Part shown: in pieces, positions 1 through 7,304 of the stretch
Layout of the letters: each line of letters begins with the position of its first letter
How positions within the stretch are numbered: the first letter of the stretch is position 1
DNA from: an uncultured Spirochaetota bacterium
Lineage (GTDB): Bacteria > Spirochaetota > Brevinematia > Brevinematales > JAOACQ01
Length of the DNA: 13,132 bases
NCBI GenBank assembly: GCA_963783575.1
Contig: CAWAOD010000017.1
Location: forward strand, 1-13,132
Direction: 5' to 3'
The notes under the pieces: generated by a model
Databases searched by the model: none
Told to the model about the DNA's origin: nothing
The model's input: only the letters and a program-made list of their open reading frames with translations
Translations under genes and position numbers: made by a program

Positions 1-86
1 TCTAGTACTAATTCAGCTTTGTTTTGAAGGACTTATTTTGCTATTACGACGACATCGAGATTCCCTTCCATAATCACCTGTCTAGT

Positions 87-837
87 AGAGTCCAAAAGCG
101 CCTGGAGCAAACTCATCAAGCGCGAACAGGCCGTTCTACTCACCAATACCTGTTAAGAAGACATGCGTATTGTGGAATTTGCAGAAGTCCACTCGTAGGG
201 AGCTGTCTTAACAAGAAATGGCTGTACTATCCGTTGCCGAGCAACAACGCCAACCACGAAAGGTCCCAAATCCTGTAATGTGGGTTACTTGAATCCCTGG
301 TTTGGGATAAGGTCAAGGCTTTGTTATCTAACCCCGATATTGTAATGACTGAGATAAACCGTGCGGCAGAGGACCTGCGCAAACAGATGGGGGCACTAAC
401 CCTGACAAAGAAATTGCTCAGGTTGGACGTCAGGTCAAGGAATATGATAATCAGGAGAAGCGCCTTATCATCGTGTTAAGGGGTGGTGAATTTAAACAAG
501 ACTTTATTTTGGATGAATTGAATAACCTGAAACAGGACCGTGAATCCGAAATTAACGTCTGCATGATTTACAGCAAGCCAAAGACCGACTAACCAAGTTA
601 GAAAAAGCTGAAATACAACTTGCCAATCTCCAAGACGTTATTAAGCGGCTTGACCAATGTACTTATGAGGAAAAACGCCTGGCCTTTGATGCCCTCGACA
701 TCAAAATTAAGGCTACACCTCAGAATATTGAGGTTAGCGGCGTTATCCCGGGGGACATTATGTCCACACAATCATCAGGTAAGAGTGAAAATCCTATTCA
801 CCATTGCACAAACATGGGCATCTCCGTTCCGTTGTAG
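87..837 (+). pseudogene. C-terminal part of a large serine recombinase/integrase (zinc-ribbon and coiled-coil region); frameshifted and apparently 5'-truncated
   Basis: Stitched frames read RVQKRLEQ...YLLRRHAYCGICRSPLVG...YYRC...SCN...LESLVWDKVKALLSNPD...coiled coil...EEKRLAFDALDIKIKATPQNIEVSGVIP. This matches the recombinase zinc beta-ribbon (YLL-x-CxxCG-like, YYxC) and C-terminal pattern. No catalytic N-terminal domain is visible. The stop is TAG 835-837, or 943 if there is one more frameshift. Confidence 0.75.
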
Positions 838-908: not shown

Positions 909-1313
909 CTAAACAGTATTACTTTGTCTTTTTACTCGCTTAGCCCTTCTAGCTTCCTTAGCGGCTCGGAAAGCGGCTCTCTGTTCCGGAGTCGGCCCTC
1001 CGTGAGTTTTTTCTACGATGGGTATTCCTACTCTCTTCCGCAACGCTTTGATGTACACTTCTTTAGATGGGCAAGAGCCTCCTATAAAATTACAAAGATG
1101 TATTACCTCTGCCCCCTTCTCTTTGAGTCTTTTAGCCTTCTTTACGATTTTATCGGCTTTACCCTGGTTGCATCCCCCACACGTATCAAATCCAACCAAT
1201 TCGATCTTGTCATAGCGGCTGAACTCCCCGGTTTTATTATCTATCGCCTTAAAACAGTTCCAACCCGCACACTCAGCGCTACGCGCGTCACAACGTACAA
1301 TTCCTATTTTCAT
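909..1313 (-). CDS. CGGC domain-containing Cys-rich putative metal-binding protein
   Basis: Intact ORF MKIGIVRC...ECAGWNCFKA...VGFDTCGGC...IHLC...CP...IVEKTH is the typical CGGC-domain (PF08821) layout. A GGAGG RBS upstream of ATG 1313 favours this start over 1334. Confidence 0.9.
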   Translation of the reverse strand: MKIGIVRCDARSAECAGWNCFKAIDNKTGEFSRYDKIELVGFDTCGGCNQGKADKIVKKAKRLKEKGAEVIHLCNFIGGSCPSKEVYIKALRKRVGIPIVEKTHGGPTPEQRAAFRAAKEARRAKRVKRQSNTV

Positions 1314-1412
1314 CGCTGGTTTTTTACCTCCCATAATTTCGATTGGCTATTATGATAGCATGAAAAAACAGGAAATGAATATATATTTCCGACGCTCTTT
1401 GGCAAATTTGCC

Positions 1413-3082
1413 CTAATACCTGGCATATGTGGGTACTATGTCCTTGTATTTAGCCACCAGTTTATCCCACTTTTTAGGAAGTTCTATTTTTTCCGTGGCG
1501 ATACTGCCACCGGAAACCATTCCCAAATGGGCCCCGAATCCGCCGAGCACATAAATCTGAACCGGGTCAGGTTCTTTAGGGACTGCCTGGAATATCGGCA
1601 GCCTGTCCTCGGGATTCTGTTTGGCTCTTTCTTCCGGGGACAGTGAATAGTAAGACTGACAGATGATCCCGGGGCGCAATAGCATTCTTGATAATATATT
1701 CCTTGATGGCTTTCTTGCTCCAGCCCTTGCTGGCCAGGGCTTTGGCATTGCTCGGGGTTAAAAGTACACCGAAGATTCCAATATGCAGGGGCGCCGCATT
1801 ATAGCAGATGCTCTTGAGAATACCAATATCATCAATCACATAGGGCATAACATGTTGATAGGTCTGTGGGAAAGTCAAAGTAACGGCGCTGTCCTCTTTC
1901 TTTAACCCTCGCTCCACATGCAGAGGTTCCCAGGGGCTGTTCTCTTCATTCTCTCCGGCTACCCAGCTATATTTGCCAGGGTTGCCCAGCAGACCCATAT
2001 CCTCCATGCCTTTGCGGATTCCCCGGATGTTCTTGGTAATCAGGCCCATCGCCCGGCCGATGGCCGCATTGGCGATATCTCCGGGATTCATGGCGCCATA
2101 GCTGCAGTTCACATGAATATCCTGGCGAATCGGGCCGTTAATAAGCCAGAAAGGGGACAAACGAGCCGGTGCTGGCGGCCATCATCACTGCGGTGCGGTT
2201 GGAGACCAGGGCTTTGGTTCCGGCGATCAATACCGGCAGATGGGTCGGCAGAGCACCCGGCCATGACGGCATTAACGGCAATCCTCTCCACGGTGGCTTT
2301 ACCCAACCGCGGCTCTAATTTGTTGACCAGGTAATCCGGCAGGCAGGTCGGTCCCGGTGAGCATTTCCGCTACGGCTTCCTCGGTCGGCGGAACTATCGG
2401 CAGGCCGTCCGTCCAGCCTCGTTTGTAAAAGAATTTATTGTACCTCCTCCAGGTTACCTTTAAAGGCGATCCTCTGGGGAGTTCCGATCTCTTTGGGCTT
2501 GGGAGAAGCTTCCTCGGCAGTCAGAGGACGGGTCAAGCCGGTAATGACGTTATCGATCACTTTTTCGATCGCCGGTTCAATCTCCTCCATGATGGTACAC
2601 TCGGAAACTATCGGTCTCCGGGACAGCCTGATCTGGGGCATACCGTGGGAAGAAGCCCCCGAATAGGCATCATTGGCGAAATACTGGAAAACCAGGGAAA
2701 CCGTGGGTTTACCTCTGGATTCGATAAAAATGCTGTCGTACACAAGGTACTTGGTGCAGGCGCCTCAGTCACCCACCGCGGCGATGACTGCATCCACGCT
2801 CTTAATCCAGTCTTCAAACTCCTGACGCCGGTCTTTTTCCAGATCGGAAACCGAGAAAGTCTTGCCCCGGAACCAGACTGAACTCGGCGTCAGGATACTT
2901 ATTCCGCAGTATTTTTTCAATTACCGTCAATATCGGCTCTGCCGCCCGCTTGCCATTACGCAGCAGGCCGATTTTCTTACCGGCCAGGTCGGTAATGCGG
3001 GGGGTCAGTCCTTTAAGGGAATCGGGTCGGCTTCTGCCCAGGGACTGAGGACTTCATACATGGCATTGGATTTGCTTGCCAT
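1413..3082 (-). CDS. Selenoprotein A: UGSC-like (U-G-A-C) redox-motif protein fused to a large uncharacterised domain, ~555 aa; several apparent sequencing frameshifts
   Basis: AGGAG RBS (3091-3095) and ATG 3082. Stitched: MASKSNAMYEVLSPWAEADP...DLAGKKIGLLRNGK...EFEDWIKSVDAVIAAVGD-TGA(2767-2765)-GACTKYLVYDSIFIESRGKPTV...GMPQIR...LTRPLTAEE...FYKRGWTDGLPIVPPTEEAVAEML...GKATVERIAVNAVMAG...NGP...ANAAIGRA...GNPGKY...ENEENSPWEPLHVERG...TYARY, TAG 1413-1415. Co-linear with the paralog at 4023-5601. Confidence 0.85.
2735..2767 (-). promoter_or_regulatory. Sec UGA codon and candidate bacterial SECIS hairpin (selenoprotein A)
   Basis: mRNA UGA GGCGCC UGCA(C)CAAG UAC CUUG UGUA gives an 8-bp stem with one bulged C and one G-U pair, starting 7 nt after the UGA. 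Folded by eye. Confidence 0.55.
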
Positions 3083-3093
3083 GATTCTGACTC

Positions 3094-3967
3094 CTATTTG
3101 TTATTTATCTGGTTAAGTGCGTCGTAGACCTTTCTCAAGTCCAATTCGGTCATAAAATGAGTAATGGGGGTTTCGGCCCCAGACTTCCTCAGCCAGTTCC
3201 AGAGCAGTATCCCGGTCCTTATCGTCTATAGTTTTTAGTGGGGCTTTCCCCGCGGGTGCTGGTGCGGTCGGTGCCCTCCGCAAGCGCCTGACCAGGACAT
3301 TCATGCCTATGCTGCGACCAGTGCTGACATTGATGGCAGCCACCATCTGATCGAAGCGTAGTCCGGCTTTAACTCCGATGTTTAAACATTCACGAGAAAA
3401 AATCTCATTTCCATATCCTTGCAGATTGTTGATCAGCTTGCAGACCTGCCCGCTTCCAATACCGCCCAGGTGAAAAATGTTTTTGCCTAAAGCTTTAAAC
3501 ACCGGCATACACCGCATTACCGCCTCATCATCTCCTCCTATCATGAGAGTTAAGGCTACCGATTCCTGCCCGGGTGTGAAATTCCGGCTTTCAGCGCTCA
3601 CCGGCGCATCAATTACATAGACTCCCTTTTCTTTTCCCTGTGCATATAACTTACGGCAATAACCCGGGCTTATCGTACTAGAAATAATAAGAGTACTCCC
3701 CTCTTTTACTCCCTGCCAAACTCCATCAGGGCCGAAAATAACCTCATCATTTTGATGCTCATCACGGACCATACTAAAAATAACATCGCTGGCGGCGGCC
3801 ACTTCACGGGATGATCCGGCTGAGGTCGCTCCCAGAGATACCATCTCAGATACAGCTTCTTTCCGCAAATCATAGACTACCAGATGTTCTCCGTTTTTGG
3901 CCATATTCTTGGCCATGAGTATGCCCATGTTGCCCAGACCGATAAAGCCTATTTTTAAAGAACTCAT
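3094..3967 (-). CDS. NAD(P)-dependent oxidoreductase, beta-hydroxyacid dehydrogenase (3-hydroxyisobutyrate/tartronate semialdehyde reductase-like) family
   Basis: GFIGLGNMG Rossmann motif, SSTISP, DAPVS, LMIGG and GSGQVCKLINN (catalytic Lys). A likely frameshift near 3180 gives the C-terminus ...GAETPITHFMTELDLRKVYDALNQINNK-TAG(3094-3096), which overlaps the next gene's RBS. The uncorrected ORF ends at 3113. Confidence 0.9.
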
Positions 3968-4022
3968 ATTTATTTCCTCTAGTTTTCCTTTCCCCGGAGA
4001 GTTATTTATTTACTGCTTTTCC

Positions 4023-5601
4023 CTAACGACCGGCCTGAGTAAGGGTGGCCCCATGGATCTTCTTTATCACATGGGCATTGGTATCCAGCATGACCCACAT
4101 CACGGTATATCCGGGCACCCCTCCGGCTACGGCGATATGAATATTTTGTTTCAGCACTCCGGTTTTTTCCTCCAGCCATTCTCGGACACTGTCCCTATTG
4201 AAGCCCAGTTTGTGGAGTTCCTTATGGATTTCCGGGTTAATTACAATGTAAACTCCGCCTCTCCGGGGCATCCTTTCAGCCAGCCATTGGTCTAAGATTG
4301 ACTGGGCTTTCCAGAGACCGACTGCGCCTCCGCCAAAAGTAGCATAAACGCTATTGACCTTGGTTACCGTAACGCAGCTATCCTGTTTACTGAATCCACG
4401 GCTGACGTGAAAGGGGTCCCACAACTTAGTTCTTCATTTTCCGCGAAAGTGTACCACGTATGTGCTGAGGGGCGACCGGTCAAGGCCATGTCATTCTCTC
4501 GGGGCCAGCAGTCCCCGATATTGAGAGTGCTCAACCTGACGGCGCGTCCGATGGTATTATTAGACCGCCAGCCGTGGCCCAACAGGCCGATACCCGAATT
4601 CATGTTGATTTCAGTGGCAATGGAGCCGTCTACCATGATTACCAGGTTGAAGGAGCCCGATGAGCCAGGGTATTAAAGAATCTTTCACCGTCACCGCCGG
4701 GACCGTTTTCTCCCACAAAGCTTTCCATGGCTCCGATGATTACCGGTAAATACTCTGGCTTAGCCCCGGCCATAACGGCGTTGATGGCAACCTTCTCAAT
4801 CGTGACGGTACCCCACTTCGTGGGACATTTCCCTAAGACTTCGTCCGGGGAGCGATTAGTGCCCTTTAGCATCCACTTGACTCGCTCCTCCGTGGGAGTT
4901 ACCGGGGCAAGCCATCACCCATATTATTTTCCAGAAAGAACTCGTTGAATTTCTCTAAAGCCTCGGAGTAAGTTTCCCCGGTTATTGAATATTCCGCCGG
5001 CCCGATGTCAGCCTTCTTAGGTTTGGGGGGATTAGCTTCTTCAGGCGTCAAGGGACGGGTCAGGATATCGATGATTTCTTCAATAGCCCCTTCGGCTACC
5101 GGTTGCACTCCTCCGGCGTCCTTCGCAGGTTATACCATTTATCCGAAGGTAAGGCTACCGGGCGTATTTTCGGCATTCCCCAGTCGTAGGCTGCCGACCG
5201 GGCATCGGTCATAAAGTTAGAGCTAACGAAATAGGCTCCCGGTAGGCCCCGCTTCTCTAGCTCGGCTGTGTGGTCGGAACCCCACCACATACAGGTGCCT
5301 CAGTCTCCGGACCCGAAATAAAGGCGTAGGCTGATCTGGCGACCTCGTCATAAAAGGCCGGATTCATAGCCAGGTTGACCGTGGTGGTAAATTGTTTGAC
5401 GAAACTGAGGGTAGGATACCTGGATTTCAGCAAGGCCTCCACGGCATCCATAAAAGTACTGACGCCGGGTTTGGTGTTGCTAACCAAAGCGATTCTCTTA
5501 CCTGCTAAATCGGGAAACCTGGCAGCCGGGGCGAACATTTTCTTGGCCTCAATATCACCTTTAGGATTCCGTAGTAATAATTCAACCTTCTGTGGACTCA
5601 T
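4023..5601 (-). CDS. Selenoprotein B: UGSC-like (U-G-T-C) redox-motif protein fused to a large uncharacterised domain, ~525 aa; several apparent sequencing frameshifts
   Basis: AAGGAG RBS and ATG 5601. Stitched: MSPQKVELLLRNPKG...RFPDLAGKRIALVSNTK...SAYAFI(F)GSGD-TGA(5302-5300)-GTCMWWGSDHTAELEKRGLPG...WGMPKIR...LTRPLTPEE...MGDGLP.VTPTEERVKWML...VTIEKVAINAVMAGAKPEYLPVII...SNNTIGRA...TGRP...ENEELS.WDPFHVSRG...AGR, TAG 4023-4025. Confidence 0.85.
5264..5302 (-). promoter_or_regulatory. Sec UGA codon and candidate bacterial SECIS hairpin (selenoprotein B)
   Basis: mRNA UGA GGCAC CUGU AU GUGGU GG GGUU CC G ACCAC ACAG CC. CUGU/ACAG, GUGGU/ACCAC and GG/CC pair around a GGUU apical loop that begins 18 nt after the UGA. 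Folded by eye. Confidence 0.7.
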
Positions 5602-5686
5602 CAGTTACTCCTTCACACTATATAGCATATTCATCTGTACCCGGAAGTGATATCTGCTCTCCGGGCACTTCAACCGAAATAATAGA

Positions 5687-7304
5687 CTACTTAGCTTTCT
5701 CCATCCAGGCTTTTTCCGGGGTCCAGACTGTAAAGTGCCCCGAGGTAAGGAGCCCATGGTCATGAAGACCTTTCTGGAGAACATCTAACGTGCGCACCTG
5801 TATAGATGGGTATGATGGTGGCATCGTCATACATAATCTTGACTAATTTTTGACACAGTGATTTCTGAGTATTGTAGTCTGTCGCCACCAGAGCACTATT
5901 AAGGGTGTCCTGGTAATTGTCCGGTCTCTTCACACTGTTAAACTGGATAGAATTAGATGAGATATAGGCATCCATGGTGGCATCATAATTGGGAGATTCG
6001 GCAAACATACAAGAGACCAGAGCATTTTTCCATCCATTGGTCCTTATATCGGTATATTTTGCCGCATTCACAATATTAATTTGGGCATCGATTCCCACGG
6101 CGCTGAGATAGGCCTGTATCGACTGGACCGCATCCTTATTGTAGGTTTGCGGGTCAGGTATAATCGTGGTCGCAAACCCATTGGGATAACCCGCTTCTGC
6201 CAGCAGTTGCTTGGCTTTTTGCGGATCATAGGTGCGTCCTACGATATCTGAGTTATAAGCCATACCATTTGGTATGGTAGCCTGATAGTTGGCACTCCAA
6301 TAACCATAGCCCAGAGTTTTGGCCATGGTGGCTTTGTCAATAGCATACTCTTACAGCCTGGCGCACTTTCGGATTAGCAAAGGGGGAATCAGCGTTTGCA
6401 CTATCAGGAAGCAATGTGGCATACCCATTAGGCTGGTTGATGACATCATATCCCTTGGCTGCCAAATCAAAGGCTGTCTTGACATCCGCGGAGCTGATTA
6501 CCTGCCCAGCTCCGGTCTGGAAAGATGCCGCACGGGTCATCGTATCCTGTATGACAGTGTCTTCTATTGCGTCAAGATAGGGTAGTCCCTTCTGCCAGTA
6601 CCCGTCAAATCGGGCAAATTTGAGAGAAACATCCCGGGCAAAACTGACAAATTTAAAGGGGCCGGTACCCACCGGGTTCCACCGGGCCCAATCTATCCCT
6701 TTGGTATTGTAGGCAGTGGGTGAGACGAACACATCACTAACTGCCATTGAACCCAGAATCGAGTTCTGATATTGTTTTAAGTTTACTTTGACCGTGTAAT
6801 CATCCACTACTTCTACTGAGGTAAACTGACCGGTTCCGGGCTTTTTGGCTACCATAAAAGCATCAATGTTAAATTTGGCCGCCTGGGCATTCCAATCGGT
6901 GCCATCCTGGAACTTGACGCCCTTCCTTAAATAAAATGTTATCGATTTCCCATCCGGAGCGACTTGCCAGGATTCAGCCAGGCAGGGAATATCATGTCCG
7001 GTGAGGTCTTCGTTAACCAGGACCTCGAGACAGGGCCTGACCATTGGCGTGGATGCGCCTATAGCTTCTGGCGGCCAGCCGATAGGAGCGCTGGGACCGG
7101 TTACTACGAGTATTTTTAATGTCCCGCCATACTGGGGCTGGAGTGCTGCTTGGGTGGGAGCAAGCTGGGTGCGGCACTCGACTGGGCGCCGGTAGCTGCG
7201 GCAGAGTTCGTGGTTGCCGACGGTGAAGAGCAAGCTGCAGCCAGCAATAAGGTCAACACAATTAAGATCAATGCTCCTAAATAAATGACTGGTCGTTTAT
7301 TCAT
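5687..7304 (-). CDS. ABC transporter substrate-binding lipoprotein, family 5 (DppA/OppA/NikA-like); frameshifted
   Basis: Signal peptide with lipobox MNKRPVIYLGALILIVLTLLLAAA-C followed by a Ser/Thr/Ala linker. Motifs PQYGGTL, LAESWQVAPDGKSITFYLRKGVKFQDGT, PVGTGPFK, YWQKGLPYLD, KVRQA and YDPQKAKQLLAEAGYPNGF. After a final frameshift it ends ...WTPEKAWMEKAK-TAG (5687-5689). AAGGAGG RBS upstream. Confidence 0.92.

Follow-up and report, generated by a model that had tools for sequence, protein, structure and literature searches.

The window analysed here, a stretch of 13,132 nucleotides, carries on its minus strand a fusion of a UGSC domain with an 'Unknown_1' domain, which, judged against its orthologues, is a single gene at 5601-4023 of about 525-526 codons including one selenocysteine (Sec) codon. 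The in-frame TGA of this gene (5302-5300) is very probably decoded as Sec by the standard bacterial SelB/tRNA-Sec route at a downstream hairpin, as we infer from comparative sequence analysis. This reading, put forward in the earlier note as Sec recoding with a bacterial SECIS (bSECIS), is supported because TGA corresponds to Cys codons (TGC) in orthologues, the family is catalogued with U at this position, the hairpin covaries, and the site tracks the Sec machinery. The gene adds one more, unexceptional member to the UGSC family, which the earlier note did not recognise; both family and fusion have been published since 2007-2008. Taken alone, the locus is another mis-split gene of a listed family on an error-rich, probably mis-binned contig. 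TGA-plus-hairpin and Cys-without-hairpin orthologues, at 66-70% identity, form a matched natural pair; expression of the Cys versions needs no Sec machinery, so the function of the UGSC family becomes testable.

Table 1. Coordinates of the features discussed (window positions)
Feature	Position	Strand	Basis
CGGC-domain protein (PF08821), downstream of paralogue A, end of co-oriented gene run	909..1334	-	Pfam
Paralogue A, same architecture, TGA 2767-2765 (D-U-G-A-C)	1413..3082	-	sequence, tblastn
NAD-dependent beta-hydroxyacid dehydrogenase (3-hydroxyisobutyrate dehydrogenase-like), between the two paralogues	3113..3967	-	
Whole gene, UGSC/'Unknown_1' fusion	4023..5601	-	tblastn of intact orthologue P0037
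C-terminal 'Unknown_1' domain (~residues 200-526)	4023..5000	-	GDGLPxxPPT, AINAVMAGAxPEYLP, WRANNTIGRA
UGSC domain (~residues 10-182), predicted alpha/beta/alpha	5050..5575	-	Pfam/NCBIfam, model, hhalign
Extended stem, 36 nt; lower pairs differ among orthologues	5264..5299	-	folding
Putative SECIS upper stem-loop, +12..+19 paired with +30..+23, loop G20-U21-U22	5270..5288	-	folding, orthologues
Cys of the UxxC motif	5291..5293	-	Cys codon in 9/9 subfamily orthologues
In-frame TGA, putative Sec 101, D-U-G-T-C (UxxC) motif	5300..5302	-	sequence, homologue sites
First missing base (~5317)	5316..5318	-	orthologue alignment, tblastn
Shine-Dalgarno-like AAGGAG, 6 nt before ATG 5601	5608..5613	-	sequence
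Family-5 ABC solute-binding protein, upstream, same strand, frameshifted	5760..7304	-	

The extent of the gene was defined by a tblastn search with the intact orthologue P0037 (526 aa with one TGA, locus L010 of a Dehalococcoidia genome), which spanned window 5601-4023 in six frame-shifted pieces at 57-79% identity. Five single-base deletions (~5317, ~5107, ~4905, ~4664 and ~4424) split the gene in this contig; the last four, which join the ORF to 4023, had been omitted from the earlier note. That note had placed one missing base near 5316-5322 and attributed it to a T-run. An extra base was indeed present at ~5317 in all seven orthologous DNA loci; the loss need not be a T-run error, because the relatives carry C, A, G or T there. 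The frame slip sends the N-terminal ORF into a spurious PETEAPVCGGVPTTQPS tail. A search with the upstream-ORF protein returned 33 relatives, and all 31 that were aligned (two 70-aa partials being left out) had N-terminal ORFs ending G[SA]GD, precisely at the TGA position; none ended PTTQPS, the natural ending that the earlier note had named as counting against its reading. Additionally, the ORFs on either side, 5601-5257 upstream and 5290-5096 downstream, matched consecutive parts of the UGSC family model, and GGAG stood at the Shine-Dalgarno place in the consensus of eight aligned loci.

Public contigs of relatives restored the absent base at four of the five sites, and near-identical public records filled two of them (~4424 and ~4905). 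No relatives' contig in the listed tables of public contigs bridged 5317, so the first deletion rests on the orthologue alignment. None of the public sequencing runs shared more than 7% of the window's words, and no RNA run was among those listed. Frameshifts also affected the adjacent ABC binding protein, a URO-D-like gene and paralogue A, the last with six insertions and two deletions relative to the 84%-identical locus L165. Because relatives fill four of the deletions and neighbouring genes are frameshifted too, we infer uncorrected long-read error, and not decay, as the source of all five deletions and of the G at 5275.

Around the site, the minus strand reads TTT AT- TTC GGG TCC GGA GAC TGA GGC ACC TGT ATG TGG TGG GGT TCC GAC CAC. 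That the TGA is in frame with the ORF 5096..5290, giving FGSGD-U-GTC, can be read directly from the sequence, as the earlier note had it. A site-profile scan found TGA at 111 of 113 distinct sites and TGC at the other two; the profile was trained on TGA sites, and it therefore favours TGA-like sites and undercounts divergent Sec-free paralogues. The first motif scan, by demanding Gly next to the site, overlooked the Cys orthologue, and its one non-TGA row was spurious. Searching the Dehalococcoidales order (363 genomes) gave 80 matches, 56 with TGA and 24 open, and every class-wide match among those listed (150 of 285) contained exactly one TGA. In three close orthologues (L006, P0039 and P0040), which share 66-70% identity with P0037, the motif is D-C-x-T-C. 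Together with L164, these three (L006 at 2483-4063) are naturally occurring Cys versions within subfamilies that carry TGA.

Across 74 full-length homologues, the residue at the site was Cys in 24, Asn in 14, Ser in 7, Ala in 7, Thr in 6 and another residue in 7, with a gap in 9. The second Cys was absent from many homologues with Asn, Ser, Ala or Thr at the Sec site; redox catalysis is therefore not required family-wide, as many members have neither Sec/Cys at the site nor the second Cys. In P0134-P0157, P0051, P0112, P0144 and L116 the Sec position is taken by Asn, Leu, Thr or Ser, some of them lacking the second Cys, and P0051, P0112 and P0144 bear N-terminal extensions resembling export signals. 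Divergent UGSC paralogues with an in-frame TGA (L119, L120 and L128-L133) showed U-P-G-C, U-D-G-C and U-S-T-C motifs.

Profile searches placed the gene in the UGSC family. The window pieces scored 34.5 and 27.9 bits on PF24696 and the N-terminal ORF 36.8 bits, all above the gathering cut-off (25 bits), and the intact orthologue scored 109 bits over model positions 2-171 of 172. On NF041046 the intact orthologue scored 90.1 bits (E 1.4e-25, model 2-147 of 147), below the 125-bit equivalog cut-off. By these scores the gene is a divergent branch of the UGSC family outside the curated equivalog NF041046, and its subfamily is a Dehalococcoidia branch. A 'UGSC-containing protein' is listed in the accessible text of PMC1976440 and of PMC2398784 (Zhang and Gladyshev 2008), and again in that of a 2026 review (PMC13188914), where such proteins are still described as largely uncharacterised. 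The UGSC/Unknown_1 fusion with the same C-terminal block appears in Fig. S1A of PMC2398784, as far as its text gives it; a by-eye comparison with that text found the AxNxVMAGxxPEYxP / NGP block in the C-terminal domain here, and the figure's AVNGVMAGCRPEYMP row corresponds to AINAVMAGAKPEYLP in this gene. Within the accessible part of PMC2398784, the published fusion shares with this gene the UGSC domain, the Sec position, UxxC, the C-terminal domain, Cys homologues and a downstream bSECIS. The gene differs from the family motif in reading U-G-T-C-x-W-W-G in place of U-G-S-C, and the Cys highlighted in Unknown_1 (MAGC) in that part of the source is Ala here.

To judge from the comparison of related sites, the hairpin after the TGA is a well-supported bacterial SECIS despite the chance-level folding strength of this copy, and the comparative evidence for it is much stronger than its folding energy. 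The 36-mer folds at -13.1 kcal/mol with a z of -0.41, and 62 of 200 shuffles folded as well; the stem contains a G17.G25 mismatch. The hairpin that the earlier note called strong is real, and the adjective is what had to be dropped. Its GGUU apical loop belongs to the same stem in an opened form, the predicted loop being GUU (+20..+22) closed by G19-C23. Single-sequence folding was rejected as proof of a SECIS, since z ranged from -0.4 to -1.35 and averaged -0.96 over 55 distinct TGA sites. A search of the whole window against Rfam gave no match up to E = 1.

The mismatch was peculiar to this copy: T stood at +25 (window 5275) in all seven orthologous loci and in 3/3 contigs of run X5. With T there the stem becomes an unbroken 8 bp, and 8/8 pairs formed in all nine WWGSYH sequences. 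Over all 111 TGA sites, among which kinship inflates the contrast, the inner five pairs formed in 78% of cells compared to 57% after shuffling (0/1000 as high), and other registers had 23-61% of cells paired. Thirty sequences hand-picked to span the subfamilies, mostly ones already showing the register and likewise inflated by kinship, gave 82.5% compared to 61% of cells paired and a covariation score of 0.56 compared to 0.21 (0/500 shuffles). Two-sided changes occurred at six of the eight pairs in these 30 sequences, from which RNAalifold recovered the same inner five pairs unprompted. The covariation across homologues that the earlier note had called for is found in the inner five pairs. Codons +7 to +9 (GGT TCC TAC) were identical in 9/9 orthologues, while conserved residues alongside use several codons, and the Cys orthologue L006 recodes the stretch such that the stem is lost.

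The available part of PMC13188914 models a bSECIS as a stem-loop 16-37 nt after the UGA with G in the first two loop positions and an MFE of at most -7.5 kcal/mol. The spacing, loop G and MFE of the hairpin here all agree with this model, as the earlier note's claim of bacterial SECIS geometry had it. The resemblance extends to the consensus in that source (Fig. 2A legend), with a loop that begins 18-19 nt after the UGA, an N1-G-U-N-N2 sequence with N1:N2 paired, an upper stem of 7-8 bp and an energy below -7.5 kcal/mol; in contrast to the consensus, the stem sequence here varies among subfamilies, forcing compensatory amino-acid changes. A permissive bSECIS-rule test was passed by 101 of 111 TGA sites but does not discriminate, because 59% of synonymous controls and both Cys sites passed as well. 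At register 42 alone, at least six of eight pairs formed at 54% of sites compared to 40% of synonymous controls, since much of the pairing follows from the encoded peptide. Other subfamilies favoured registers at -1 or +4 from this one. The 14/16 match between the 16-nt contexts of this TGA and the paralogue TGA (2767-2765), reported earlier, was reproduced; it mostly reflects shared codons, because positions G1, A2, T4, G5, A6, G7, G8, T13 and G14 were invariant in 30 family members.

The origin of the contig bears on the Sec machinery available to the gene. The window is an entire contig of the host assembly, with 49% GC in an assembly mostly at 37%; 177 host chunks reached at most 44.8% GC, and the tetranucleotide distance of the contig was above their maximum. 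A second composition outlier was another contig of the host assembly, C7 (52% GC). No selA, selB, selD or tRNA-Sec over the cut-off was found in the host assembly, and the UGSC family was present in 0/30 relatives of the host, two of which matched any window DNA, both in unrelated genes. The five genome matches were all Chloroflexota, four of them Dehalococcoidia or Dehalococcoidales, and window DNA was matched in 15 of 151 Dehalococcoidales-order genomes at up to 84%. The contig is probably mis-binned Dehalococcoidia DNA, given its outlying composition, its Dehalococcoidales matches and the absence of the family from the host's relatives. Since the contig appears foreign, the host assembly's want of Sec genes would say nothing about this TGA; equally, no Sec genes belonging to the source organism itself were seen.

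Sec genes were present in 60 of 61 UGSC-bearing Dehalococcoidia genomes. We detected selA in 57/61 UGSC-positive compared to 49/90 UGSC-negative Dehalococcoidia genomes (Fisher P = 8e-8, overstated by kinship). Three of the four UGSC-positive genomes lacking selA had tRNA-Sec, two of these also selB, and the fourth (G131) had a weak match only (E 6.8e-4). The five nearest named genomes carried tRNA-Sec in 5/5 and selA in 4/5. Dehalococcoidia are among the most selenoprotein-rich bacteria in BSepDB, according to the accessible part of PMC13326102. Large paralogue expansions were seen in G031, G033, G079, G114, G129 and G045, with at least 17-21 UGSC matches per Dehalococcoidia genome.

Three other explanations of the split gene were weighed. 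A real pseudogene, in which the deletions and the G at 5275 represent decay, perhaps after transfer into a Sec-less host, would accommodate five deletions, several of them outside homopolymers, as well as three changes of residues conserved elsewhere (5328 Asp>Tyr, 5289 Thr>Met, 5275 Tyr>Asp) and a host assembly without Sec genes. We consider this improbable: unrelated neighbouring genes are broken likewise, the matched pieces contain no in-frame stop besides the TGA, near-identical public contigs have the missing base at 4423 and 4903, and the compositional outlier status, the Dehalococcoidales matches of up to 84% and the 0/30 count among host relatives point to mis-binning instead.

Termination at the TGA, yielding a two-subunit enzyme whose 100-aa N-terminal chain and C-terminal chain start independently, is what most databases' gene callers imply, with many 100-aa and 396-aa entries. 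It is very improbable, however, as all 111 stop-bearing sites have TGA and never TAA or TAG, 9/9 orthologues have ACG or ACA in place of the start codon of the downstream ORF (ATG at 5290), the TGA sits at a strand-helix junction within one predicted domain, and the Cys orthologues are continuous. A UGA read as Cys or Trp, or through a SECIS-independent route, is scarcely credible: TGA terminates ordinary ORFs in the window, the TGA site is tied to Sec genes, and the stem is gone where the codon is TGC, even though the hairpin here is thermodynamically unremarkable and that of paralogue A is weak (-5.5 kcal/mol).

An AlphaFold2 model of the orthologue (pLDDT 94, pTM 0.94) has a three-layer alpha/beta/alpha N-terminal domain in which U101 lies at a helix start just after a strand, placing the TGA inside one predicted domain. 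The top 50 structural matches were Rossmann, flavodoxin/receiver, TIR and P-loop folds with tied, middling scores; no thioredoxin was among the 50 listed, and the model shows beta-alpha repeats. The Sec domain is accordingly predicted from the model to be Rossmann/flavodoxin-like and probably not thioredoxin-like, unlike the 'likely Trx-like' assignment in the available text of PMC2398784. The C-terminal domain alone also folds confidently in prediction, with no clear match among solved structures, and sequence searches of the PDB gave insignificant matches only (E 0.019, 0.088).

Profile-profile comparison aligned the C-terminal half of the UGSC domain with the Sec region of GrdB (hhalign probability 97%, E 1.2e-10, 89 columns, Sec on Sec), with the GrdB alignment built from 12 Chloroflexota loci; the match to PrdB was weaker (probability 77%, E 2e-5). 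NCBIfam matches to GrdB-type models were weak (E 0.015, 0.065), TIGR01917 gave 14.2 bits against a cut-off of 602, and PF07355 matched neither the window nor the intact orthologue. GrdB/GrdH, PrdB and the gene here have in common a strand-U-G-T-C-helix-E-x-x-G-x-P-strand core, Sec on Sec. They differ in that the second Cys of the GrdB CxxC is missing here (T-W-W instead) and the C-terminal domain here does not match GrdB or PrdB. No grdA, grdC, grdE or prdA-like gene was found by Pfam in the window or in 24 neighbouring ORFs of related loci; the pyruvoyl proprotein GrdE/PrdA is the partner of GrdB/PrdB. From these alignments, the U-G-T-C region is homologous to the Sec region of GrdB/PrdB, and the gene itself is not GrdB or PrdB. 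The literature searched, mostly outside subscription journals, held no statement of a UGSC-GrdB homology or a UGSC function. Together, the GrdB homology and the predicted non-thioredoxin fold favour a GrdB/PrdB-type reductase over a generic thiol oxidoreductase as the working guess at function.

By this analogy, the gene product is likely a Sec-dependent reductase. A tentative mechanism, to which we give rather less than even weight, is that of a single-chain enzyme working through a selenolate, a selenenylsulfide and thioredoxin. SelB and tRNA-Sec would insert Sec at the TGA, guided by the hairpin 12-30 nt downstream, to give a predicted 526-residue, two-domain single-chain enzyme. The selenolate would attack a small substrate held with help from the C-terminal domain, after the chemistry of GrdB and PrdB as given in the accessible part of PMC13188914; the U-x-x-C pair would then form a selenenylsulfide, which the thioredoxin system of the cell would re-reduce. 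The window itself contained neither a thioredoxin nor a reductase gene; a single pyridine nucleotide-disulphide oxidoreductase adjoins a paralogue-A orthologue. The neighbourhoods of the family were catabolic but variable, with aldehyde:ferredoxin oxidoreductases, short-chain dehydrogenases, UbiD, MmgE/PrpD, URO-D-like and beta-hydroxyacid dehydrogenase genes and no fixed partner gene across 13 neighbourhoods. Their catabolic content suggests a role in the anaerobic breakdown of organic acids or amino compounds.

More speculatively, UGSC/Unknown_1 fusions might be widespread, paralogue-expanded single-chain Sec reductases descended from the GrdB/PrdB catalytic core, with the C-terminal domain replacing the pyruvoyl subunit as substrate activator, and might perform undiscovered reductive bond-cleaving reactions on organic matter in sediment Dehalococcoidia, at up to ~20 copies in a genome; we regard this as unlikely in its full form. 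On this view the SECIS would also visibly dictate which residues follow Sec.

At paralogue A, the codons AAG TAC CTT GTG TAC (window 2765-2735, minus strand) were identical in 12/12 KYLVY-type TGA sites, an identity that implies RNA-level constraint. The consensus stem of paralogue A is 4 bp with a CUUGU loop, folding at -5.5 kcal/mol in this copy, and this hairpin is possibly an atypical SECIS. In the window and in genome G428 (L169:569-1420) alike, paralogue A is immediately preceded by the beta-hydroxyacid dehydrogenase; this adjacency, seen at two loci, is a possible conserved link. A small ORF with the motif VRNAAQA and no Pfam match follows the gene in L010:7618-8049, L013:3590-4027 and L166:3219-3710 and is absent after the gene in the window. 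A promoter/terminator scan of the window performed at chance level. On the plus strand, window 24-479 holds fragments in which a CGICR motif precedes a helical stretch; they had no Pfam match and resemble a serine recombinase C-terminus.
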